Part shown: positions 17,006-54,769 of the stretch, piece by piece
Numbering within the stretch: the first letter of the stretch is position 1
Layout of the letters: every line of letters starts with the position of its first letter
Origin: Bdellovibrionota bacterium
GTDB lineage: Bacteria; Bdellovibrionota; UBA2428
Reading direction: 5' to 3'
NCBI GenBank assembly: GCA_041750195.1
Contig: JBGSZX010000043.1
Location: forward strand, 77,650-141,649
DNA: 64,000 nt
Position numbers and translations under genes: made by a program
The notes under the pieces: generated by a model
The model's input: only the letters and a program-made list of their open reading frames with translations
Databases searched by the model: none
What the model was told of the DNA's origin: nothing

Positions 17006-17766
17006 TAAAACCGCCTCACATAACCCACACTAAAACTTGCGTTTTCAATTTTTGCCAATCCCTTTGGGAAAAAATAAAATGAACTTTGTTCAGACTTTTC
17101 TTTGCCAGATTTTGCCTCGCTCTTTCGTCCCTGTGCCAAACTCCATTCTCCAACCCAATAACCGATGGCTCCGCCGATTAAAACATCACTCAACCAATGC
17201 TTCCCCTCGTACATTCGTGCATAGGCCGTCATCCCGGCTGACCCGTATAAGAAAATGCTAACTGCAACATTGTCAGCCCAATGTGACAAAACTCTCGCCA
17301 TGGCAAACGCTGAAGCCGTATGCCCCGATGGAAAAGAATTCCAATTAGAGTCGGTAAATGAAAAGGGCCTAAACGTATAGGCCCCATCGTTTAAATAGGG
17401 ACGTGCTCTTCCAACCAAAGTTTTTCCCGTCCAAACAACAAGAGTCGACGCGGCAAAAGCTCGAGTCGCATCTCGCCACATTGCCAGCTGAGGTGAAAAC
17501 TCTTTTCCAGAATCGCCTTGGCTCGCCTGCAGAGAAAACAATGCATAAGGGAATAGACCCAATGCAGGCGCTACAAAGCCACCAAACCTTTCACCATAGA
17601 CACTTATATGCCCTAAGGTAGCATTTTTTGAATTTTGTATTTTTTCGTGAATACCCTGGTCAAAAGCAAAACAATTTCCGACAAAAAATGCGGCTACAAA
17701 AAAAATGCTGCGTAAAAATTTTAACAAAGATTTGAAATATCTGAAAGACATTGGCTCACCAAGCAA
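17005..17766 (-). CDS. PAP2 family phosphatase (type 2 phosphatidic acid phosphatase fold)
   Basis: All three PAP2 motifs are present: KxxxxxxRP (GRARPYL), PSGH (FPSGHTASAF) and SRxxxxxHxxxD (ARMYEGKHWLSDVLIGG). Confidence 0.75.
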   Translation of the reverse strand: MLGEPMSFRYFKSLLKFLRSIFFVAAFFVGNCFAFDQGIHEKIQNSKNATLGHISVYGERFGGFVAPALGLFPYALFSLQASQGDSGKEFSPQLAMWRDATRAFAASTLVVWTGKTLVGRARPYLNDGAYTFRPFSFTDSNWNSFPSGHTASAFAMARVLSHWADNVAVSIFLYGSAGMTAYARMYEGKHWLSDVLIGGAIGYWVGEWSLAQGRKSEAKSGKEKSEQSSFYFFPKGLAKIENASFSVGYVRRF

Positions 17767-18496
17767 CGCCTAGGCCAAGATGTCCATGCATAGAGGCTTG
17801 CAAAACTCTAGCGCGCCCACCAACGATTGGAACGATAGCTTTGGTCAACATGAAGCGGAGGTCTGCATTGGCAAAAATATTTCTCCACAAAAATTGTCTC
17901 GCCTCGACACCGGTATGCATACCGGCACCAACGAGTGAATATCTCTTTCCAGTTGGCCACGTTATGGGCTCGTTAGGAAGCGTCAATCCATTTACTGTAT
18001 TAACGGGATGAACCACCACGGGCCCCACTCCGAAATAAAAATTTAACCAAGGCAGTAGACTCGCACCGACGGAAAATGGAATTAGATTGTATCCGAATGT
18101 CATACGGAATTCGCTAACGGCCGCCGGCAAATTATTGAGCCAAACTTTGTGATGCAAAAGTTCAATGCCCCACCACATATCGTTTAAGCCCCAAAAACTG
18201 CTATCCATTGCTCTTCGATATCTAATATCGTAATAAGGTGCCGCCCCCGGTCCAAAGGGACGGGTGGAATACTTGGCCGTAAGTTTTTCCTGATAAGCAC
18301 CCTGCTCAAACTTAAGGGGCATGTTAAAGTTTTGTGCGCCGCCGCTCTGAATATCAAAAGCGTTTTTCGAGCCGCCAAAGGCACTGGCAATTGCAATATC
18401 AGATATTGTGGCCCCAAAGATCATAAAACCAAACATAAGCCAAAAGTGAGACACCGAAGCTTGTCTATGCGAAGGCGAACAAAAGTTGTGATTCAT
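17756..18496 (-). CDS. Hypothetical exported protein, possibly an OM beta-barrel
   Basis: N-terminal hydrophobic segment. C-terminal aromatic ...LGLGVAW. 14-bp tandem repeats lie just upstream of it. Confidence 0.45.
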   Translation of the reverse strand: MNHNFCSPSHRQASVSHFWLMFGFMIFGATISDIAIASAFGGSKNAFDIQSGGAQNFNMPLKFEQGAYQEKLTAKYSTRPFGPGAAPYYDIRYRRAMDSSFWGLNDMWWGIELLHHKVWLNNLPAAVSEFRMTFGYNLIPFSVGASLLPWLNFYFGVGPVVVHPVNTVNGLTLPNEPITWPTGKRYSLVGAGMHTGVEARQFLWRNIFANADLRFMLTKAIVPIVGGRARVLQASMHGHLGLGVAW

Positions 18497-18579
18497 AGGT
18501 CGCCTAAGCTAGAAAAAGAATTGCAAATGCGCAATCCAAGAGATCAATGAATTGCGTCTTTAAATTTTTTTGAATTACC

Positions 18580-18634
18580 GGAGTAAACTAACGGAGCTAA
18601 ACTACTGGAGCTAAACTACTGGGGCTAAACTACT
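18580..18634. repeat. 14-bp tandem repeat array (about 4 copies of ggagctaaactact) at the smg 3' end, upstream of the 17756-18496 gene
   Basis: ggagtaaactaac ggagctaaactact ggagctaaactact ggggctaaactact read directly. The last unit overlaps the smg stop codon. Confidence 0.8.
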
Positions 18635-19094
18635 GAAGAACAGTCGTGCTCGACTGCAGCCATTCTCGCCATTCAGCCTGCATCCTTGCAAAAACCGTCA
18701 AAGCTGCAATACGGCGAATTGAGCGAGGACTAACTTCCGGCCCAGACAACGCCATCGCTCGTTCAATGATTTCTTCCACAGTTAGCTGATCAATCACCCC
18801 TCGAGTATGGAGCCCAATAATAACTCCATGTGCTTCAGGAGTTATTTTCATCGCCTCAATGCGGCTAAGAACACGTAAAGATGGAGACAATTGTGTCTCA
18901 AGAGATCGTTTTCTTGATAAACCCTCAGCCAATGTTTTTTCTTCTATCCATCTGAAAGCTTCTTTAATTTCGGTGCTCGAAAATCCTTGGTCTACCAAGG
19001 CATCATTTAAATCGTCTTGTTCAAAACTTTCGTCCTCAACATCTGCAAAATATTGGCCAATGAAACCCACGGCGTCTAATACTCTTGTATCCAC
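18630..19094 (-). CDS. smg: Smg-like protein (DUF494)
   Basis: 154 aa, acidic. Located immediately downstream of dprA, as smg is with smf in enterobacteria. The architecture is similar; this is not verified by search. Confidence 0.45.
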   Translation of the reverse strand: MDTRVLDAVGFIGQYFADVEDESFEQDDLNDALVDQGFSSTEIKEAFRWIEEKTLAEGLSRKRSLETQLSPSLRVLSRIEAMKITPEAHGVIIGLHTRGVIDQLTVEEIIERAMALSGPEVSPRSIRRIAALTVFARMQAEWREWLQSSTTVLQ

Positions 19095-19174
19095 TGATGC
19101 CCCCTTTCAATAGGTTGCTAGTTTCCGAACACCCTAAGCAAAGCCTATAGGTTTTCGGAGTCATACACCCCTAC

Positions 19175-19906
19175 TTATATATTATATGAATTGCGCGCCG
19201 CGTGAGCAACTAAGCTTTCCGCAAATTCCGCCAGATCCGTCAACACCTCACCTTGCCCCCTTGAAATCATTAATGAAATGCCATGTGAAGATTTGTTAAA
19301 GATTGACCCCGGAACCAGATAGACAGATTTTGACATATCGGCGGCGTCTTTGGCCGTTTGCCAAGTACCTGATTTTTTTAGAGCCTCTACAATCAATACA
19401 ATATCGGCATCGGCCGCAATCCAAGCATTGCGCAAAAGCCATGCCTTAGGTCCTAGCCTGGCTCGGAGGCCATCAGCAGATTGTAGGACCCTCGGCACCA
19501 ACAAAGCTGATCCCTTAGTATTTACAATTCTACTAAACAAAGCTGCATTCCATTGTGGTCCAGGCCGCTCGATTGGCCCCACCAACCAGGATCTTGTATC
19601 TAAATTATTTTTTAGCGCCTCTTCATGTGCACAAGCATCGATTCCGATAGCACCACCAGAAACGATGCAGATTGGCGCCCCCCTTAGCATCAACAACAAT
19701 TGCGCAACCACAGCTCGCCCATATTCGGTAGATTTTCTGGTCCCAATTATGGCGAGTCTTAGATTGCTTCTTTTAAAAGTCGCCGCATCACCACGCAAAT
19801 ACACTTCATTACAATTTAACAAATGGGGATACTGCTCGCGAAGTTTAGAAATTTTAGGACACAAAGAACTTAGTGCATGAAGATTTTCTTTCATGCAAAG
19901 CCCCAT
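19175..19906 (-). CDS. dprA: DNA processing protein DprA (Smf), Rossmann-fold domain only
   Basis: The core IIGTRKSTEYGRAVVAQL...VSGGAIGIDACAHEEALK matches the DprA Rossmann domain. At 243 aa it lacks the N-terminal SAM and C-terminal wHTH extensions. Confidence 0.7.
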   Translation of the reverse strand: MGLCMKENLHALSSLCPKISKLREQYPHLLNCNEVYLRGDAATFKRSNLRLAIIGTRKSTEYGRAVVAQLLLMLRGAPICIVSGGAIGIDACAHEEALKNNLDTRSWLVGPIERPGPQWNAALFSRIVNTKGSALLVPRVLQSADGLRARLGPKAWLLRNAWIAADADIVLIVEALKKSGTWQTAKDAADMSKSVYLVPGSIFNKSSHGISLMISRGQGEVLTDLAEFAESLVAHAARNSYNI

Positions 19907-20024
19907 TCAATAATTAGGCCAGTCAGTCAATGTGCTGTGGGTAATGTGCCCTACACCGAAGCCATCATGCGCATAAATAGTGCGATTGAAGTCGAGCTGC
20001 TAAGTCAAAAGCGCGCATTTTTTT

Positions 20025-20084
20025 AAATGTCCAACTATCCGCTTCCAATTATCCGCTTTATAAAATGTCCAATTATCCGCCGCC
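20025..20084. repeat. Three direct repeats of a 13-bp motif TCCAAYTATCCGC in the dprA upstream region
   Basis: aaatgtccaactatccgctt ccaattatccgcttt ataaaatgtccaattatccgccgcc. Copies at 20030, 20045 and 20068. Confidence 0.75.
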
Positions 20085-20492
20085 TATAAAAATATTTACG
20101 TTCCTCAGAAGCCCTCTCTTGCGCGAAACTTTTTTGCTATAGCCAAGTTTTTCGAGACGATTCAAATCAAAATATTCCTTTATCGACTTATAGGATTTTC
20201 TTCCAAGACTCACGATTCTACTTGTCGCCAACGACCGTGATTTATTTAAAATCCATCTTTCATTCCTGAGAAATGAACGCGACCCTATAGCCTTATAAGA
20301 CTTGAGCACCACATGATTTGCATGTTTGCACGACACGGGCCGTGCAGTTTTTGGATTTGATGCTGTGGCGCCTTTAACCGGAGCGCCAGATGCTTTAACC
20401 CAAACTACCGGAGCGCCACCAAATGACATTGATGTCTTGCTAAATTGTTTGAAATGAAACAAATTTTGCTGTTTGCTTTGGATTCGAGTCAC
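20073..20492 (-). CDS. Hypothetical very basic small protein (139 aa)
   Basis: The ORF is flanked by two tandem-repeat arrays. Lys/Arg-rich. No recognisable motif. It could be spurious. Confidence 0.3.
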   Translation of the reverse strand: MTRIQSKQQNLFHFKQFSKTSMSFGGAPVVWVKASGAPVKGATASNPKTARPVSCKHANHVVLKSYKAIGSRSFLRNERWILNKSRSLATSRIVSLGRKSYKSIKEYFDLNRLEKLGYSKKVSRKRGLLRNVNIFIGGG

Positions 20493-20553
20493 TATTTAAA
20501 TACCATACGTCCGTATGGTAGCTATGAAAAAGCAAAAACTAGTCGAGTTATTT

Positions 20554-20595
20554 AGAAGCTCCACATTAGAAGCTCCACATTAGAGGTTCCATATG
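20554..20595. repeat. 14-bp tandem repeat x3 (agaagctccacatt) upstream of the 139-aa basic ORF
   Basis: agaagctccacatt agaagctccacatt agaggttccatatg. Confidence 0.8.
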
Positions 20596-20702
20596 TGACA
20601 CAAACTGCACAATGGAGCATTTCCCCTCGCGCCAAACAATAAGACTGTGAGTGCATCACCCACACGACATCATAAAGACCCAGGCCAGCCGCTGTTTAAC
20701 AG

Positions 20703-22295
20703 TTAAAAAATACTGTCTTCGACATCAACTTCTTCTTCAGAGTTAACAATCCAAAGGGTTCCGGTTCTTTGATCGCGGTCAATTAACAGCGCCTTAGCTT
20801 TCGCAGAATTTCCCACATTAATTGTAATCAGAGCTCCAGGACGAGGACCTACGCCAATCGATGGAAATCGAATTCCCATCAAACCATATTCGGCAGTATG
20901 GACTTCCGCGCCCTCCTGCAATGGAACCAACCTGGTTTGCTCTCGCTCTTCTGGACCAATCGTTTCTTCATGAATCGCCAGCGGAGTAATTCTAAACGAT
21001 CGGTTGACGATCAAATCTCCAGCCTGAACTTCTCGAAACGCTTTAACAACCGTGGCTCTATTGCCCTCAACCTTTAAAGTTCCCAACCAGTTCACACGAT
21101 AATAAGTCGAAAAATCAATATTAATGGTTTTGATTTTTACGATTGGAAATATCCCATCGGCCAAACTCGTCTTAAAGCTGTCGCCCTCTCGATAGAAAAT
21201 TTTCCCAGATGAATTAAATATTTTTGGAATCTCTCCAACACTATCTGGCTTGCTATATAACAAAAAATATTGAAAAGGGGGATGAGGCGCCTGAATCTGC
21301 ATCCGAAGAGTTGCATCAATAAACTCTAAAAGAGTTTTTTCTTTATCCATTTTTGTGAGGGGATAAAGCGCCACATTGCTCGCATCAGAAATATCAGACT
21401 TGTACGCTAGCTCCGGAGCGGAACCTGGATTTCCTGGTTTAAAATCCAATGTCATTCCGGTTGATATGATGTGTGGATTCGTAATCGATGCATTCAAGTG
21501 CCAAATTTTGGGCCATAAAAAGGGCGTTCCAAAAAGCCTCTCCGAAACTTTCCATAAGCTATCTCCCCGATGAACGTTGTATTCCTTGTCGACCATAGGC
21601 CCTGCCCATCGCACCCAGTTTGCATCACTCATCTGTGGCCTCAGTGGAACTCTCCAAAATTTATCTGAAGGAGGCAGCTGATTCCCGGGTTCATCAGACA
21701 AATCAGAACCAAGGCTTCCGGCCTGAAGCTGTTCGGCTTGCTCTAATCGTTTTTCTAAAGCTTGGATGTCGTCTGGCATAGCCATAGGATCTTCCATCAA
21801 ACCACTGCCATCTGAATTGCTGTCTTCCAAATTCGTCGGTTGTGCTAGCAACGGACTTGGAGCGACGGGCTGTTTTACCGCGGGGCTAACGACTTCCATT
21901 TGATCTTCTTCATCTAAATTTTCCGTTTGAGCGGAAGAAGATTCGGATTCCGAATCCGATTTAGCCTCTTTGGTATCGGCCATCTGATCAAACTCTTCTT
22001 CAAGTGCATCGTCACTAAGAGCTTCTTCTTCACTCGTGTCAGACTTTGTGTCGGCCTTCGCCTCCAGATTACTTGCACTTTCACCCAATTCTTCCTCGGC
22101 TTCAGATACTTCTTCTTGTGCCTCTGCCATATTCGAATTTTTCTGGGCCTCTTCAGTCGCTGAAGAGGCAGAATCCTCGGATGATTCTAGATCTGGAAAA
22201 TCCTCAAACGGCGATTCTTCGTCTTGAGCCAAGCCACGGCCTGAGAATGCAAGGGCTAAGACAAAAATAGATAATTTGAGAAATTTAGTTTTCAA
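20703..22295 (-). CDS. Secreted protein with an acidic low-complexity N-terminal region and a LysM peptidoglycan-binding domain
   Basis: Signal peptide present. Long D/E/S-rich stretch. LysM-like YNVHRGDSLWKVSERLFGTPFLWPKIWHLNASITNPHIISTGMTLDF. Confidence 0.6.
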   Translation of the reverse strand: MKTKFLKLSIFVLALAFSGRGLAQDEESPFEDFPDLESSEDSASSATEEAQKNSNMAEAQEEVSEAEEELGESASNLEAKADTKSDTSEEEALSDDALEEEFDQMADTKEAKSDSESESSSAQTENLDEEDQMEVVSPAVKQPVAPSPLLAQPTNLEDSNSDGSGLMEDPMAMPDDIQALEKRLEQAEQLQAGSLGSDLSDEPGNQLPPSDKFWRVPLRPQMSDANWVRWAGPMVDKEYNVHRGDSLWKVSERLFGTPFLWPKIWHLNASITNPHIISTGMTLDFKPGNPGSAPELAYKSDISDASNVALYPLTKMDKEKTLLEFIDATLRMQIQAPHPPFQYFLLYSKPDSVGEIPKIFNSSGKIFYREGDSFKTSLADGIFPIVKIKTINIDFSTYYRVNWLGTLKVEGNRATVVKAFREVQAGDLIVNRSFRITPLAIHEETIGPEEREQTRLVPLQEGAEVHTAEYGLMGIRFPSIGVGPRPGALITINVGNSAKAKALLIDRDQRTGTLWIVNSEEEVDVEDSIF

Positions 22296-22848
22296 AACTT
22301 TTACCCTCTAGAAGCTCTACCAATTTGCTCTCAGCCTTTCCTGCGGCTGGCGTTGCCGGATATTTTCTAATCAATGCCTGCCACTCAATGAGCGCATGAT
22401 CATTTCTCCCAAGATGGACCCAACACAAACCAATCATAAAAAACGCATCTGCAACGGTTGAATCGTCTATTCCTTTATATTTTAGAGTCTTTTTGAGTTC
22501 ACGAATAGCATCTTCAAAATTTCTTCTTCGATACTCCACTTCACCTAATAAAAATTGCGCCTGAGCGGTGAGTTTGTGTTTCGGATAACGTCTTAAAAAA
22601 TCAGTAAGGCTCACAAGTGCCTCAGACTCCTTTCCAAGCCGAATAAGCTGAGTGGCCCTCTCCATATCTCGGCTGGCATCAATATTTGTCGATTCAGAAT
22701 CTGCACGTAAAGGCGTACTGACCAAAAGGCATCCCCAGATACAAAGAGTCAAAATACTAACACCCAAAAAGGGCTGATTAATTATCTTCACTCTCACTAG
22801 TATCATATTCGTATTGAGAGATGTAAAGACGCTGCTCAAAGAGGCCAA
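22285..22848 (-). CDS. TPR-repeat protein with an N-terminal membrane anchor or signal
   Basis: Hydrophobic N-terminus followed by TPR-like helical repeats (AQFLLGEVEYRRRNFEDAIRELKK..., AFFMIGLCWVHLGRNDHALIEW...). Confidence 0.5.
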   Translation of the reverse strand: MASLSSVFTSLNTNMILVRVKIINQPFLGVSILTLCIWGCLLVSTPLRADSESTNIDASRDMERATQLIRLGKESEALVSLTDFLRRYPKHKLTAQAQFLLGEVEYRRRNFEDAIRELKKTLKYKGIDDSTVADAFFMIGLCWVHLGRNDHALIEWQALIRKYPATPAAGKAESKLVELLEGKSFEN

Positions 22849-24308
22849 TCATTGAATAAAAAGACTCTTTGCCCGACTTCAGGATCTCGCCTAGGCAAAA
22901 GGTGCGCCTCGCGTCCTCCGTTTGAATAAATTTTCACTGCCTCTAAAAAAGAAATTTTTTCAGCATCACGAAGCTCCTTCGCACTCGAGAGCAATGTTCG
23001 CATAGGATCAAAAGAAACTATAGGAGCGTCACTACCCAGACTCAATGGCACATTAGCCTCTAAAAGGCTTTTGAGGCGATAAGCGTCTCTATCTAATCTA
23101 GTTTCACCCAAATATTGTTTTGAAAACCTTCGATCTTCGATCTCATGTTCGGGTTGAACCGCCAAAGTCCAAAATGGAAATTCATTTTGCAATCTTTTGA
23201 TCTGTGTCCTTTTTACCAATTGCGCATGTTCGATGCGATGAATTCGCCCACCCGCTTTTTTACAGTGCTCCAAAAGTTCCTTCGACAAAGCCGCACTCAA
23301 CTCTAAAACCTGCTCAAAGGCAGCGTCTCCGATAGCATGAAAACTTAACGCAAATCCTCTTTTTAGAGCGCCACGAGCTTCTTCGATGAGTTCCCTAGTC
23401 TCCCAGAGTTTCAACCCAAAATTATTTGGGTCATCTTCATAGTGATCCGTCAAATTTGCAGTCTTAGCTCCGAAGGAGCCATCCAAATATTTTTTCCAAT
23501 GTCGAACTTCTGCCCGCCGTGTTCCTAGCGCGCATTTGAAATCAAACGAGAATGGGGACAGATCACGTGTATCAACGTCATCAAGCAATATGCCCTGGTA
23601 GTCCATCTTTAAATCGCCGCTTTTTGCCAATTGCAAAACACAATCGTAACCAACGCGATCTAGGCTCATATCTCCAACCGCCGTAATGCCCGCCCTCATT
23701 AGCATCTCTTGCGCATGCAGGAATTGTCCTCGACGGGTCAATGAGCTCGCCTCTGGCAATGCCTTTTGAAGAGCCGCGATTCCATTATCGTCTAAAATAT
23801 TTTTATACTGAGAATTATACTGAGAATTATACTGTGAATTATCTAAAGACGCCGGCAAATACTCCCTCAAGGCCGCATCACTTAGAAGAGCCATATGAGC
23901 GCATTTGCGATAAAGTATCCACGACTTTTCCTGCCCCAACTGCTCCACACACTTCTTATAAAATTCTTCAATCGAAACACCCCATCGCCGCTCATCAAAG
24001 GCATAGGAGATCAAAGTTTCGTCAGATTTATTCTGATGTCCTTTGATGGCTTCAATGTAAGCGTCCGAAGATTCGAAAGAATCTCCAATAATTCGCGTAG
24101 AAAATTCCCCCAACCAACTTACGTGCAAATGAGAATCAAAAAACCCTGCATGTAAGATAGGCCATTTAGAAAAATCTTCAGCACAGTTATCGATAGGGGA
24201 TAACTCTCTTAAGGTAAATTCACCCTCAGAACCTGCCTCAAGAACAGCTTTATGAGGGGCAAAACAATCAGCTTTATTGAGAAGAATAACATCTTTATTG
24301 ATACGCAC
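22836..24308 (-). CDS. Amidohydrolase-family metal-dependent hydrolase
   Basis: N-terminal metal-binding HxH (FFDSHLHVSW) and the overall architecture fit Amidohydro_3-like proteins. Contains an in-frame NSQYNSQYNSQY repeat. Confidence 0.6.
   Translation of the reverse strand: MRINKDVILLNKADCFAPHKAVLEAGSEGEFTLRELSPIDNCAEDFSKWPILHAGFFDSHLHVSWLGEFSTRIIGDSFESSDAYIEAIKGHQNKSDETLISYAFDERRWGVSIEEFYKKCVEQLGQEKSWILYRKCAHMALLSDAALREYLPASLDNSQYNSQYNSQYKNILDDNGIAALQKALPEASSLTRRGQFLHAQEMLMRAGITAVGDMSLDRVGYDCVLQLAKSGDLKMDYQGILLDDVDTRDLSPFSFDFKCALGTRRAEVRHWKKYLDGSFGAKTANLTDHYEDDPNNFGLKLWETRELIEEARGALKRGFALSFHAIGDAAFEQVLELSAALSKELLEHCKKAGGRIHRIEHAQLVKRTQIKRLQNEFPFWTLAVQPEHEIEDRRFSKQYLGETRLDRDAYRLKSLLEANVPLSLGSDAPIVSFDPMRTLLSSAKELRDAEKISFLEAVKIYSNGGREAHLLPRRDPEVGQRVFLFNDWPL
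23807..23842. repeat. 12-bp tandem repeat x3 (actgagaattat) inside the amidohydrolase coding sequence
   Basis: Direct inspection shows actgagaattat actgagaattat actgtgaattat, encoding NSQY x3 on the minus strand. Confidence 0.8.
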
Positions 24309-32922: not shown

Positions 32923-34008
32923 CTAACGGAGTTTTAGAGTGCTTAGCGCTACCAGCGCAAGCAAAAACGACACAATCCAGAAGCGAACAATCACTTTTGG
33001 TTCGGGCCACCCCAATAATTCAAAGTGATGATGCAAAGGCGCCATTTTAAAGACGCGGCGCCCCGTAAGTTTAAACGAAAGCACCTGCACGATCACCGAC
33101 AAAGTTTCCATTACGAAAACTCCGCCCAGTATGACAAGAAGAATCTCATGTTTGGTTGCAACTGCGAGTGCGCCAATTGCACCGCCCAGGGAAAGTGCAC
33201 CGACATCTCCCATAAAAATTTGCGCTGGGTAGGTGTTAAACCATAGGAAGCCAACACCTGCCGCCAGTAACGCGGCGCAAAATACCGCCAGCTCTCCCGT
33301 TTGAGGAATATGCGGAATTTGTAAATAATCTGCAAAAACAGCATTTCCGCCTAGGTACGCCAAAATGAAAAAAGCTGCGATGTTTACAATACAAGGCCCA
33401 ATTGCGAGTCCATCCAGGCCATCCGTCAAATTAACAGCATTCGAGGTCCCCACCATGACAAGGACTGAAACAGCAATGTACCAGGGCCCCATATCAAGGG
33501 TGATATTTTTGAAGAATGGAAAAAAGAGATGTCCCGATATGGGACTACTAAACTGAATGACGTAGAAGCCCCAAGCCACAAAAAGTGCCGACAAAACTTG
33601 AAGCCGCATTTTCCAACGAGACGCCAAGCCTTTGGGATCTTTGTATAAAACTTTTTTTGCGTCATCCAGAAGCCCAATAAACCCAAACGCCCAAGTGATT
33701 CCAAGCAACAGCCAAATATAAGGATTGCTCAAGTCAGCCCAGAGCAGACAACCCAATGATAACCCCAAAAGTATAAGAACTCCTCCCATCGTTGGAGTTC
33801 CCTGTTTCTTAAGATGGCTTTGTGGGCCGTCATCTCGAACGGCTTGGCCATATTGCTTGGATTGAATGTAGCGAATGAAGGGTCGCCCCATGACTAAGAC
33901 AAAAAGCAAAGCAGTAAGGGCCGCCATTCCTGACCTAAAAGTGATGTATCGGAAAACGTTAAAAGCAGAAAGTGAGTCTTGAAATGAAATTAGTAGCCAA
34001 TAAAGCAT
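32923..34008 (-). CDS. mraY: Phospho-N-acetylmuramoyl-pentapeptide transferase
   Basis: Ten-TM protein with conserved MraY motifs (PTMGG, NAVNLTDGLDGLA, HHHFEL). Confidence 0.9.
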   Translation of the reverse strand: MLYWLLISFQDSLSAFNVFRYITFRSGMAALTALLFVLVMGRPFIRYIQSKQYGQAVRDDGPQSHLKKQGTPTMGGVLILLGLSLGCLLWADLSNPYIWLLLGITWAFGFIGLLDDAKKVLYKDPKGLASRWKMRLQVLSALFVAWGFYVIQFSSPISGHLFFPFFKNITLDMGPWYIAVSVLVMVGTSNAVNLTDGLDGLAIGPCIVNIAAFFILAYLGGNAVFADYLQIPHIPQTGELAVFCAALLAAGVGFLWFNTYPAQIFMGDVGALSLGGAIGALAVATKHEILLVILGGVFVMETLSVIVQVLSFKLTGRRVFKMAPLHHHFELLGWPEPKVIVRFWIVSFLLALVALSTLKLR

Positions 34009-34113
34009 ATGTGTTCGCCTGATCAGAGCTTAGCTGAGAGCGGCTCTTATCTCAAATAAGGGCGACAATTTTAAATACTGTTTTTTAAATTCTGTTTGTA
34101 GAGTCAGTCTGAA

Positions 34114-40532: not shown

Positions 40533-41738
40533 TCAGAACAAATCTCTAAGAACACGGTTCCGAGCCATGAGCCTTTGACGGGCCTTATATTCACGATGCC
40601 GGCTTCGGCCACCGATGGCCTCGACATAGGATTCTTTATCCAAAATCTGGACCTCGAACGGGTAATAAAAGGTTCGCTTTTCCCTGAGCGTAATAGGGAC
40701 TTGCTTTAACGCTTCAGCAACACCTTTTTCGTGAATAATTTGAGACTTTAAATCGGTCCAAAACATGAATGTCGGATCGGGAGCGACAATTAACTGACGG
40801 CAGGTAAATTGAATGGCTCTATACCACGATGAAGAGAATCTATTTTTAATACTCTTCAATGAAACCGCAGTTTCATTCTCCATCTTTCGAAGAGCATAAT
40901 GAAACGATGCCTCGTCAAGATCATTAGCCTCTATTTGATGCCCCATGTCCTCGACAAAATTACGAAAAGTTTCGGTAGGAATAAGCGTATTCAGAGAACG
41001 TTGGGGATGAATATTGGTTGGCGAAACCAGGCCAGTTTCGAAGAGAACCCGAACTAACTGAAAAGCCTCCCAACGGGTTTCAGTTACAAATCTAAAGCCG
41101 ATACGATCATAGATAGCTTCAACCATGGTCTTGGGCTTTGAAAGCAACTTTACCAAGGTCGAATTGCGATCTTTTCTTTCTTTTTTAAGGTAGCGAACTA
41201 GCTTTACGCTATTTTTACCCTGGCCAAGGGTCCATCTTCTTTCGTCAGCAACGGGTTGAATCATGCGATCAAATCTCTGAAAAATTTGCTCTCTCGCATA
41301 GCGAAAATTCTCAAACCTCACATCGTTGTCCAGATGAGAAATAATATGCATAACCCTAAGCACAGCACAGCTCCAGCGACTTGCAGCCGTGGGCGTGTTC
41401 TTTGAAGCCTCCTGTAGGAGCCTAAGAATATCACTTTGGTTGCCCCTGGTTAAAAAGGATTCAGGAATGTCTTCGCCATCATTCAACAAAGCATTTCTTA
41501 AAAAGGAGACTGCCTCAAAATAAATTTTCCAAATTTCTTCTCGTTCAATGGGAGACTCCGGATCATAACCGTAGGACTCCAAAAACTGAGCAGCCTCTTG
41601 CTTTGAGTGAATGTTTAATTTTTGAACGTCGACGTACGAACGACCTTCGGTCGCAGCATAAAGAGCATCCCAATCAAAATTGATCTGATCCAAAATTACC
41701 AGGCGTCTCCGTCGTCGGAACCTCGACGCGAAGACCAA
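40533..41738 (-). CDS. Hypothetical 401-aa cytoplasmic protein; possible nucleotidyltransferase (RelA/SpoT-like) fold, low confidence
   Basis: YDRIGFRFV, LVRVLFETGLVSP and RSLNTLI segments loosely resemble the D-x-x-G-x-R strand, the hG-h-P strand and the SLHT motifs of RSH synthetase domains. A possible TTG start at 41691-41693 would remove the 43-bp overlap with the upstream gene. Confidence 0.5.
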   Translation of the reverse strand: MVFASRFRRRRRLVILDQINFDWDALYAATEGRSYVDVQKLNIHSKQEAAQFLESYGYDPESPIEREEIWKIYFEAVSFLRNALLNDGEDIPESFLTRGNQSDILRLLQEASKNTPTAASRWSCAVLRVMHIISHLDNDVRFENFRYAREQIFQRFDRMIQPVADERRWTLGQGKNSVKLVRYLKKERKDRNSTLVKLLSKPKTMVEAIYDRIGFRFVTETRWEAFQLVRVLFETGLVSPTNIHPQRSLNTLIPTETFRNFVEDMGHQIEANDLDEASFHYALRKMENETAVSLKSIKNRFSSSWYRAIQFTCRQLIVAPDPTFMFWTDLKSQIIHEKGVAEALKQVPITLREKRTFYYPFEVQILDKESYVEAIGGRSRHREYKARQRLMARNRVLRDLF

Positions 41739-42415
41739 TCTTCATCGTCCTCACTCCACTCGTCGGAATCATCAAAATCGGTATCGCTATCTTCTTCGTC
41801 CTCAGTCGCCTCAATACCTGTTGGGTCGTCTTTCCACCAAGGAGGAGGTCCTTCGGAGACTTCTTCTTCAACCTCTTCTTCCCCTTCAAATTCAATCTTC
41901 GCTTCATCTTCTTCATCGTCATCTTCGCTATCGCCCTCGTCGGCAAATGAATCAAAGCGGCTGGCACTAAACGAATCATCATCAAGATCTTCGTCATCAT
42001 CATAAATACTTTTTGAAGAAGCCGATCGGCTAGGGCCCTCACCAAACTTCTCGCCATCATTGTCAAAGTCTTCTAGGTCTTCGATCTCATCCAATTCGTC
42101 ATCGTCCCCCGACAAAATAGCTTTTGCTTTGGACGGCTTTAGCGGAGCCGGTTTTGAACTCTCCGAATTTTTTAGAGCAGGCTTCTTGGATACTTTACTA
42201 GACGTTGAAGCACTTGCTTTTTTGTCTGTGGATTTTGCCACAGTTTTAGCTCCAGATTTAGCTCCAGATTTTGCCGCAGCTTTAACTGACGTTTTAGCAG
42301 CAGGCTTTGTCGCCGCCTTTTTCGCTGCAGTTTTTGTAGTTTTCTTTACAGCTTTTTTCGCCGTCTTATTCTTTGTAGCCATTCCAGGTCCTTTCACCTT
42401 TGTAATGTCCCTCAC
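41696..42415 (-). CDS. Dipolar low-complexity protein: Lys/Ala/Thr-rich histone-H1-like N-terminal region followed by a long Asp/Glu-rich acidic tail
   Basis: N-terminus AKKAVKKTTKTAAKKAATKPAAKTSVKAAAKSGAKSGAKTVAKS. C-terminus about 150 aa rich in D/E (DDDEDLDDDSF...EDEEDSDTDFDDSDEW). Coding on this strand is supported by a long ORF in a compositionally biased region. Confidence 0.5.
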   Translation of the reverse strand: MRDITKVKGPGMATKNKTAKKAVKKTTKTAAKKAATKPAAKTSVKAAAKSGAKSGAKTVAKSTDKKASASTSSKVSKKPALKNSESSKPAPLKPSKAKAILSGDDDELDEIEDLEDFDNDGEKFGEGPSRSASSKSIYDDDEDLDDDSFSASRFDSFADEGDSEDDDEEDEAKIEFEGEEEVEEEVSEGPPPWWKDDPTGIEATEDEEDSDTDFDDSDEWSEDDEDWSSRRGSDDGDAW

Positions 42416-52225: not shown

Positions 52226-54676
52226 CTAAAAACCAAATTTCTTTTTCAAATTATTAATTTGTTTTTTAACTTCAGGATTCTTGACCTTTTCGTTAATTTT
52301 CTCTTCAATTTTTGGCAATACTTTTTGGATTTGTTTTTTAGCAATCTTTTTGGCGGCTCCCTTGGAAGCTCGCTCAACTAAAATTTTTGTAGTGTATCCA
52401 TAATCCGGTTTGGGCTCGTCCATAGTTCCCTTAAGTTTAAGGGGAAACTCAATCTGTCCACTAGGCCCAAGCAACTCATCTCGATTAATAATTTTTGGAT
52501 CCATAAACAATACTGCCGTGAGGTCGATAGCTTTATCAAAATTGATTGTCCCATTCCCCTGAAATCTCATGTCGCCCAATTTCCCCTTTTGAGTATCATA
52601 GATGACATCTAAATTTTTAAGCTGAACCTGTCTTCCCACAATTTCGCTATCCACTTTGGCTGTCTTAAACGCACCATTAAAATTTTGGTTATCAATTTTT
52701 CCAGTTTTGCCTTTTGCGATATCTGGCAACTTGCCAAAAACTTCATTGATGACTTTGAGGACTGGGATATTTAAAGTTCCACTAGTTAGCTCACCCCTTA
52801 GGGAGCCTTTTAAATGTTTTTCAAGATCTTTTTTTAGAAGACCAATGCCACTTATATTAAAAATACCTTTTAAGTTTCCAGTGACATCTTTCTGCCATTT
52901 TGGCGCGTGCGCGGCCAACGCCTTTTCAACGGCAATGTTGTTTAGCATTGCATTCATACTATAGCTAAAGGCCTTTGGCTGAAGGCCCAGACTAAGGACA
53001 GCATCCATGCCTCCGCCATAGGCTTTCATGCCACCGGCATTTATGTTCATTTTTCTATTTGCTAGCCCCATAGCAAGGGATGCGTCTTTATAAGAAGCAC
53101 CCATAAACTTGATCTCTTTAAAGTTAACTTTGCCATCCATTTTTATGGAATCAAGCATTTCATTAGAGAGTGCCTCTTCAATCATCGGAGCCATGTCTTC
53201 TAAACTTTGATCGAGGCTCGCGTTTGGATTTACAGCAGCAGCCTTTGCTGGAGTACCAGCAGTTTTCGCAGTGCCGCCAGCGGGAACACTCGAAGTTGTA
53301 GCGGCAGAATCCACAGCCAACATGAGCTCATCTAGATCGATCAATTTTGAATTTACGGCAAAGCCAATATTAATTTTTTTAATTCCCTCGATAGTTGCTG
53401 AGAGACCTAAATCCGATTTCCCAATATTGATCGAAGAATTGTTGATGTTAATCTTTGGAGAACTAAGCGATCCCCCCAAAACAACCTGTCCTTTACCATT
53501 GCTGATCGGCTTCGACAGCTCAGGTGTTGATCCCTTCACTCCTGAGAATGAAACGTTGCCGGAAAATTTTGGATCTTTAAAGTCGCCAGCAATTCCGATT
53601 TTATAATTCAACGTCCCGCCTAGAGAATAGCTTCTAAGAAATGGAAACAATGCTGAAAAAGATGACAGCTCGACACCATTGGCGAGCATCGACAACGAAA
53701 AGTTTTCGGGCCCTTCGTCCGGCATTGTTAAATCTAACGATCCAGTTGTTTTAATTCCTCCAATTTCGAAATTAAGTTCCTTCAAGTTAGCTTTTATGCC
53801 GTTTCCATAACTGATCAGACCTTTAGAAGATGCGGCAAGTGCGGAGCCCTTTTGCTTATGCATCAAATCCAAGGCCTTGATTTCTAGAGCCGCTAAATCT
53901 TTCCGTATATCAATTTCAGCACTAACAACTCCGGTTGCTTGATCGATAGAGACCTTTGTCGTCCCAGCCATTTCGACCAAACCATTTATTGTCACACCAG
54001 CGCCTTTAGCAACCACATCGGTAGAACCTTTGATTTTTATCAAACTATCGAGACCAATATCACTAACATCAAAATCAAAATTAGAGAGCGACTCCTCAAG
54101 GTGCAATCCATCTTTGAACTTTAGATTCGACACAATTTGAGCATCATTGAGTTCGAAAGAAAATTTGGCGCCCACAATACGGGCCCTAAGAAAGCCAGGA
54201 ATTCCCCCAAGAATCTCTGCGATATCCTCTGCTTTATTGCTCTTGGCGACCGCCTTATTTTGCTCCATAACTTCGGCATCCTTTGGGGGAGGCAGAAGAA
54301 AAGCTGCCAAATTATCAAGACTTTTAGTTTCGTCCTTGATCCATTCTAATTTTAAGTCATTTAGAGTCAACGTCGCTTTCGGCGATGCAAGCAACGAAAG
54401 CAATGACATTTTTAATTCAACAGATTTTAAGGATCCTAAGTTTTTATTTTTGACCTCTGGAGAAATTAACTGAATATCGTCAACTCCGATGGATATAGAT
54501 GGAAACAAAGAAAGTGACAATTTTCCCAGCTTAACTTCCCCTCTTACATTTTTTTTAATAACTTCTTCAATTTTTGGTCGAAGGTCATCCAAAGAATAGA
54601 ACATGGGGGCCACCAGCAAAGCTAAAATAATAGCCGCTACAAATATTCCACCAAATTTTAAGATTTTTTTCATCAT
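52226..54676 (-). CDS. AsmA-family protein
   Basis: N-terminal TM anchor followed by an AsmA-like N-terminal region (LRPKIEEVIKKNVRGEVKLGKLSLSLFP). 816 aa of repetitive beta-rich sequence. Confidence 0.65.
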   Translation of the reverse strand: MMKKILKFGGIFVAAIILALLVAPMFYSLDDLRPKIEEVIKKNVRGEVKLGKLSLSLFPSISIGVDDIQLISPEVKNKNLGSLKSVELKMSLLSLLASPKATLTLNDLKLEWIKDETKSLDNLAAFLLPPPKDAEVMEQNKAVAKSNKAEDIAEILGGIPGFLRARIVGAKFSFELNDAQIVSNLKFKDGLHLEESLSNFDFDVSDIGLDSLIKIKGSTDVVAKGAGVTINGLVEMAGTTKVSIDQATGVVSAEIDIRKDLAALEIKALDLMHKQKGSALAASSKGLISYGNGIKANLKELNFEIGGIKTTGSLDLTMPDEGPENFSLSMLANGVELSSFSALFPFLRSYSLGGTLNYKIGIAGDFKDPKFSGNVSFSGVKGSTPELSKPISNGKGQVVLGGSLSSPKININNSSINIGKSDLGLSATIEGIKKINIGFAVNSKLIDLDELMLAVDSAATTSSVPAGGTAKTAGTPAKAAAVNPNASLDQSLEDMAPMIEEALSNEMLDSIKMDGKVNFKEIKFMGASYKDASLAMGLANRKMNINAGGMKAYGGGMDAVLSLGLQPKAFSYSMNAMLNNIAVEKALAAHAPKWQKDVTGNLKGIFNISGIGLLKKDLEKHLKGSLRGELTSGTLNIPVLKVINEVFGKLPDIAKGKTGKIDNQNFNGAFKTAKVDSEIVGRQVQLKNLDVIYDTQKGKLGDMRFQGNGTINFDKAIDLTAVLFMDPKIINRDELLGPSGQIEFPLKLKGTMDEPKPDYGYTTKILVERASKGAAKKIAKKQIQKVLPKIEEKINEKVKNPEVKKQINNLKKKFGF

Positions 54677-54769
54677 TTCCCCTTAACTATTAAATTACTT
54701 ATAAAATTAGTTACAAAACTACTTACAAAATTTATTAAAACAATAACAACAACTTTCAACTCCCTTTAA

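Follow-up and report, generated by a model that had tools for sequence, protein, structure and literature searches.

Short repeats in bacterial DNA are known from several described systems. Bacterial variable number tandem repeats (VNTRs) are slipped-strand duplications, and classical contingency tracts are built from units of 1–7 nt. HUH Rep proteins bind tandem repeats located beside a nick-site hairpin, as in the 'bind' loci, e.g., the three 11-bp repeats of pMV158, and in the iterons of geminiviruses. Repetitive extragenic palindromic (REP) sequences and bacterial interspersed mosaic elements (BIMEs) consist of many dispersed palindromic units of 20–40 nt. RAYT genes are flanked by inverted REPs (PMC5581495, PMC2817692). 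Here we analyzed three short direct-repeat arrays, termed A1, A2, and A3, that are located around the genes dprA and smg in 64,000 nt of DNA (the window) from an uncultured Bdellovibrionota bacterium (assembly GCA_041750195.1, contig JBGSZX010000043.1, positions 77,650 to 141,649). We find it likely that A1–A3 were produced by replication slippage in unconstrained DNA and are neutral or nearly so, and they are probably without a dedicated function. Each array would be an independent local tandem duplication, made and resized by replication slippage.

An earlier note on this DNA had described the three arrays as independent of each other and as distinct from CRISPR. All of them were recovered in place by Tandem Repeats Finder (TRF), by repeat search, and by pattern searches for units in register. 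A1 (18576-18635, minus strand) has a TRF period of 14 with 4.4 copies, and its score of 85 is the highest in the window. It is composed of two exact units, one unit with one mismatch, and one degenerate 13-nt unit. On the gene strand A1 reads (C)AGTAGTTTAGCYCC, with the promoter-distal fourth unit being the degenerate one, and the first unit, AGTAGTTTAGCCCC, includes the smg stop codon TAG at 18632-18630. A2 (20030-20091, minus strand; TRF period 14/24) contains GCGGATARTTGGA three times on the gene strand with spacings of 24 and 14 nt. The unit TCCAAYTATCCGC starts at 20030, 20044, and 20068, i.e., with a spacing of 14 and then 24 nt, hence A2 is a direct-repeat array but not a strictly tandem one. 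A2 units 1 and 3 have a longer 24-nt unit in common. The first A2 unit on the gene strand, GCGGATAATTGGA, holds the final Gly codon and the TAA stop codon (20075-20073) of the putative transposase remnant described below. Since the first units of both A1 and A2 hold stop codons, their positions are as expected if duplications are tolerated only outward from the stop. A3 (20552-20593, minus strand) consists of two exact copies of TGTGGAGCTTCTAA and one unit with 11/14 matches; TRF reports 20552-20584 with a period of 14 and 100% matches. Its end and the downstream promoter-like motif of the remnant are about 20 nt apart. The three arrays are unrelated in unit sequence, which agrees with the earlier description, and units of 13–14 nt that abut or lie 10 nt apart do not fit CRISPR, which needs repeats of 24–48 nt and unique spacers of similar length. 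The 6-mer GGAGCT common to A1 and A3 was considered as a sign of kinship and rejected, since by a rough estimate about 10% of pairs of circular 14-nt units would have a 6-mer in common on one strand or the other.

Nine arrays scoring at least 50 were found in the window, compared to 0.23 expected from dinucleotide shuffles of the window. Therefore, each array is a real duplication product and not a chance occurrence. The arrays resemble bacterial VNTRs in having head-to-tail units of 12–14 nt, two to four copies, a mostly intergenic location, and degenerate edges, but they are unusually dense in this genome when compared with the shuffles. The concentration of A1–A3 around dprA and smg, which the earlier note had pointed out, was rejected as a locus-specific signal. 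When nine arrays were placed uniformly, three of them lay within 2 kb in 19% of cases (P ~0.19), and when five were placed in non-coding DNA alone, three did so in 22% (P ~0.22). Five of the nine arrays lie in the ~5.5% of the window that is non-coding. The clustering is not significant because about 29% of the non-coding DNA of the window is contained in 18497-20702, i.e., it reflects where the non-coding DNA is (P ~0.2).

The repeat units were found not to be conserved. Pattern searches identified no further copies of the A1 and A2 units in the window beyond chance. For the A3 unit there was a modest excess of matches with three mismatches, mostly within open reading frames (ORFs) and without repeat structure. 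None of the three units was present in 15 related loci (labeled with the prefix L), syntenic dprA-smg loci included. These results do not support the earlier suggestion that the arrays are typical iterons or transcription factor binding sites. As RNA or single-stranded DNA the arrays folded no better than shuffled sequences, with z-scores from -1.05 to +1.17, the Rfam and tRNA searches gave no matches, and a promoter scan identified no promoter-like site overlapping any array.

A2 and A3 were found to lie in DNA that relatives do not have. The gap between dprA and the LysM-like gene next to it is 37 nt in six near-identical assemblies of a sister species (L003–L008), 41 nt in a further relative (L009), and ~800 nt in the window. 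L003–L008 and L009 have the same gene order as the window and no repeat in the LysM-like/dprA spacer, and their DprA proteins are 74% (L003–L008) and 68% (L009) identical to that of the window. The extra DNA amounts to ~759 nt (19923-20681, minus strand) and is bracketed by the 7-nt direct repeat CTGGCCT (gene strand), with the right copy at 19916-19922 and the left copy at 20682-20688 (both minus strand). The repeat is a candidate target-site duplication. When 19923-20681 and one CTGGCCT are deleted in silico, the remaining spacer is 42 nt long and aligns to the spacer of L009 (P = 0.003) and of L003 (P = 0.04). The site is polymorphic, with the insertion being present in the window and absent from L003–L009. 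Judged from these alignments, the ~759-nt stretch is a predicted decayed mobile element whose insertion in this Bdellovibrionota lineage separated the LysM-like gene from dprA. The earlier note had placed A2 where a competence-type regulator would control dprA. As A2 and A3 are both inside the insertion, and the 37–41-nt spacer of the relatives has no repeat, they cannot be conserved dprA control sites. The repeats thus appear to mark unconstrained DNA from a decayed transposable element and not a system that regulates the competence gene dprA.

An imperfect 17-nt inverted repeat with 14/17 matches is located close to the two ends of the insertion. The right arm, ATGTSSTGTGGGTRATG (19930-19946, plus strand), is capable of forming a hairpin, and the left arm (20654-20670, minus strand) overlaps an 8-bp hairpin at 20664-20646. 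An inverted repeat of this kind has a P of ~0.03, both of its ends overlap hairpin-capable sequence, and the motif occurs only twice in the 64 kb. A pair of similar, directly oriented hairpins at the two ends, as found subterminally in IS200/IS605 elements, was also looked for and rejected (P = 0.53; hairpin energies unremarkable). The repeat of the insertion is inverted, as are the REPs of RAYTs, and flanking direct repeats of 7 nt, as present here, are not typical of IS200/IS605.

The insertion contains the 139-aa basic ORF (20073-20492, minus strand; likely start codon ATG at 20429) that the earlier note had called highly basic. Homology points away from an ordinary basic protein: alignment with homologues of 189–226 aa indicates that the ORF is a deleted remnant, probably of a RayT/IS200-like Y1 (HUH) transposase of ~190–226 aa. 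In the window copy 76 residues are missing in frame, and the HSNHIHLL (HUH) segment is among them. The 139-aa ORF itself has no Pfam or NCBIfam match, but weaker relatives carry PF01797, and two homologues are named "REP element-mobilizing transposase RayT" by IMG. Full-length family members score 16–23 bits against Y1_Tnp (PF01797), which is borderline relative to the cutoff of 23, and the family profile matches ISDra2 TnpA weakly (E = 0.08). The RayT-like family comprises 1,037 clusters at 50% identity (E <= 1e-10), its proteins have a mean column identity of 57%, and only one copy was found in the window. Genome and metagenome contigs, viral contigs, plasmids, and phages were searched for further copies of the element and for close relatives and yielded no DNA, as did exact look-ups of the proteins P0001–P0004 and P0017. 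Other paralogues of the transposase carry different, repeat-bounded internal deletions and a varying number of KASGA repeats. In the remnant, a 12-nt direct repeat, ACCGGAGCGCCA, with 30-nt spacing at 20377-20418 encodes a KASGA-type stretch, and the number of these repeats differs among the paralogues P0001–P0006. We suggest annotating the 139-aa ORF as a transposase pseudogene.

The insertion resembles RAYT and IS200/IS605 elements in its ORF, which has homologues that match PF01797 at borderline scores and that IMG names RayT, in being absent from relatives, and in having candidate hairpin-capable inverted repeats at its flanks. It differs from them in a Pfam match that does not exceed the gathering score, in the loss of the local HUH motif, and in a flanking repeat that has no dispersed copies in the 64 kb. 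Tandem arrays are, to our knowledge, not a described part of RAYT or IS200/IS605 elements. It could still be argued that the arrays are functional ends of the mobile element, i.e., REP/BIME-like or IS-end sequences used for transposition. The location of A2 and A3 within the insertion, between its 17-nt inverted repeats, fits this proposal, and since the ...GG-stop ending of the window copy is also found in homologues, other copies may have the first A2 unit. The units are, however, direct and non-palindromic, and they do not fold. There is no motif common to the sequences downstream of family members, the A2 and A3 units are not dispersed in the 64-kb window, and A1 lies outside the element. 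We therefore regard functional ends as very improbable. The inverted-repeat motif of the insertion, with two copies in the 64 kb, and the non-palindromic array units, which are not dispersed there, both differ from REPs and BIMEs. On visual inspection the sequences downstream of family members seemed to share a CGGATAAT-like motif, but it showed no excess over shuffles and was discarded.

A promoter-like motif, TTTTCA-N17-TATGGT, is located upstream of the remnant at 20501-20530 (minus strand). The motif includes CATAGCTAC, is typical of the family, and is overlapped by a hairpin, TACCATAC-GGAC-GTATGGTA. The window keeps ttttCATAGCTAC-N-TATGGT, and the overlapping hairpin at 20520-20501 has a z-score of -3.2. 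The distant homologous loci L001 and L011–L015 have a promoter-like TTGACA-N17-TA...T in common, most of them with TTGACAT[AC]GCTAC. This extended -35 is found upstream of RayT-like genes in L001 (~3870), L012 (~94), L013 (~430), L014 (~1430), and L015 (~1410), and at 20526-20518 in the window. The loci come from unrelated metagenomes, and several of them have an inverted repeat overlapping the spacer and the -10 region. The TTGACAT[AC]GCTAC motif may be an autoregulatory or recognition site of the RayT-like family. Since the insertion, dprA and smg may be transcribed from the promoter of the element.

The proximity of A3 to this motif bears on the possibility that the arrays are iteron-like direct repeats bound by a Y1/HUH family protein or by a transcription factor. 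With its three 14-nt units, A3 lies ~30 nt from the significant hairpin (z = -3.2) and beside an HUH-family gene. Such an arrangement of three to four direct repeats near a hairpin and an HUH-family gene is similar to iterons and to the loci of HUH Rep proteins. Tandem repeats are also found upstream of the conserved promoter motif of the family in L015, in L012, and weakly in L014. Although the proteins are well conserved (57%), the arrays differ fully in sequence and in period (5, 11, 14, and 24 nt), and three of the seven loci (L001, L011, and L013) have no such arrays. When the window, which was selected for its arrays, is left out, the two of six loci that remain are not significant (rough binomial P ~0.03–0.11, at an assumed background of 5–10%). 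The local gene lacks the HUH motif. The locus also differs from the Rep systems in its chromosomal housekeeping context, in its non-conserved unit, and in having a defective HUH gene and no replication module: no replication genes were found nearby, the neighbors being smg, dprA, the LysM-like gene, PAP2, DUF4421, ClpB, LeuRS, and RpoN. An iteron-like role is for these reasons improbable.

The same family could be envisaged as recurrently accompanied by lineage-specific upstream tandem repeats (A3, L015, and L012), which would be either iteron-like binding or processing sites or by-products of HUH nicking and rejoining. We know of no description of such an upstream association for RAYTs or IS200-like elements, and we consider the proposal doubtful. 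The wider point is limited to a weak hint that the Y1-transposase family tends to carry upstream tandem repeats. The array in L015 (1152-1390) consists of ~7 units of a 24-nt direct repeat upstream of the RayT-like gene, three of them perfect (TRF score 142), and it is interrupted by a 23-nt inverted repeat (1208-1230/1274-1296). The (TCAGT)x6 array of L012 sits at a contig end.

With regard to A1, a terminator-like hairpin followed by a T-run is located at 18518-18537 (minus strand), between A1 and the gene for a 246-aa exported protein. This hairpin places A1 within the 3' untranslated region of smg. A1 would have arisen in this region, ahead of the terminator, by duplication of the last smg codon, the stop codon, and the 8 following bases. 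A2 and A3 would have arisen by slippage in the non-coding flanks of the dead RayT/IS200-like Y1-transposase gene.

That the arrays are substrates for slipped-strand events, as the earlier note had held, agrees with what was found at the orthologous post-smg site in the sister species. In L003 and L004 a 12-nt unit, TGATTCGAAAGC, is present three times directly after the smg stop codon (L003 7278-7313), and in L005–L008 it is present twice, i.e., there are three copies in two and two copies in four assemblies. This array is unrelated in sequence to A1, and L009 has no repeat after the smg stop codon. The six assemblies differ by at most 11 single nucleotide polymorphisms over 9.3 kb (99.9% identity), and the 12-nt unit is one of only ~4 insertions or deletions between them. 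Thus, a different repeat arose at the same intergenic spot, and its copy number has been changing on a very short timescale. It is in this copy-number polymorphism between near-identical strains that the likeness to VNTRs extends beyond array structure. From the observations in the window and in the sister species we infer slippage as the mechanism and neutrality of the products.

The same polymorphism could speak for phase or expression variation, in which the gain or loss of a 14-nt unit would alter promoter geometry or read-through and thereby tune the 246-aa protein (A1) or dprA-smg (A2). Near-identical strains of the sister species have either two or three copies at the orthologous site behind smg, and the genes downstream of the site encode exported or outer-membrane-type proteins. 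In having tandem repeats near exported-protein genes together with a strain-dependent copy number at the sister-species site, the system is similar to contingency loci. Units of 14 nt in three to four copies are, however, unlike the classical contingency tracts, and the arrays are located at stop codons or in a dead element instead of in an ORF or a promoter spacer. A1 lies upstream of the terminator-like hairpin and not between a recognizable -35 and -10, and the promoter scan was empty there. L009 has no repeat at the post-smg site, and A2 is wholly absent from relatives. Nor does position point to such a role, as the stop codons of smg and of the dead ORF are where A1 and A2, respectively, begin. 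Based on this, we consider phase or expression variation unlikely.

Several observations weigh against neutral slippage, which we favor. An array is located directly after the smg stop codon in two species, although the units are unrelated. This could be a coincidence (~1 in 7 if arrays occur only in intergenic DNA) or a hint of selection. Strong tandem arrays, unrelated to each other, are found upstream of the transposase family in L015 (24 nt x3, perfect) and in L012 ((TCAGT)x6). A1 and A3 each contain two exact units, which makes them either recent or maintained. Finally, the copy-number variation described here is that of the sister-species array.

Short repeats of this kind were also found away from dprA and smg. 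An AT-rich intergenic array with two copies of AACAGWATTTAAAA (34069-34097) is located upstream of a gene starting at 34008, and a second AT-rich intergenic array (54692-54732; 12 nt x3.4) lies 16 nt upstream of the start of an AsmA-like gene at 54676. Such repeats are therefore not specific to the dprA locus. The other arrays of the window, an in-frame NSQY insertion, and the repeats and deletions of the transposase paralogues together point to a putative genome-wide tendency to short tandem duplication and deletion. The genome appears to tolerate many short tandem duplications, and strains of this uncultured Bdellovibrionota lineage might be typed with the arrays as candidate VNTR markers.

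All genes at the locus are encoded on the minus strand, in the order LysM-like gene, 139-aa ORF, dprA, smg, the gene for the 246-aa exported protein, PAP2, and DUF4421. The window is chromosomal, with ClpB, LeuRS, RpoN, UvrD, and PFK also being present. For LeuRS, the best match that carries a name is from a Bdellovibrionota MAG (72% identity). Pfam matches agreed with the gene labels given previously for smg and dprA. For smg (DUF494/Smg, 18630-19094, minus strand) both the C-terminus and the position of the stop codon are as in relatives. The dprA gene (PF02481, 19175-19906, minus strand) encodes a short DprA with the DNA_processg_A domain only. Translation probably starts at the second ATG (19894), given the 239-aa length of the database protein P0019. 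The LysM-like gene (20703-22295, minus strand; 530 aa) adjoins dprA in relatives. The gene for the 246-aa exported protein (17756-18496, minus strand) is conserved, and the protein ends with GLGVAW, has no Pfam match, and is 64–69% identical to its orthologues in L009 and L003.

The L003–L008 lineage also carries an inserted DUF481 outer-membrane gene, which separates smg from the 231-aa orthologue of the exported protein. A 19-nt deletion in L004 (4081-4099) splits a TPR gene and is either a real frameshift or an assembly error. Within the window, a 12-nt x3.3 repeat (23803-23842) encodes DNSQYNSQYNSQY (NSQY x3) in an amidohydrolase gene (22836-24308, minus strand), and this in-frame insertion is not present in the amidohydrolase orthologues of L003 or L009. 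A 12-nt x5 imperfect repeat (42241-42303) in the ORF at 41696-42415 (minus strand) encodes a LELNLELK-type stretch.

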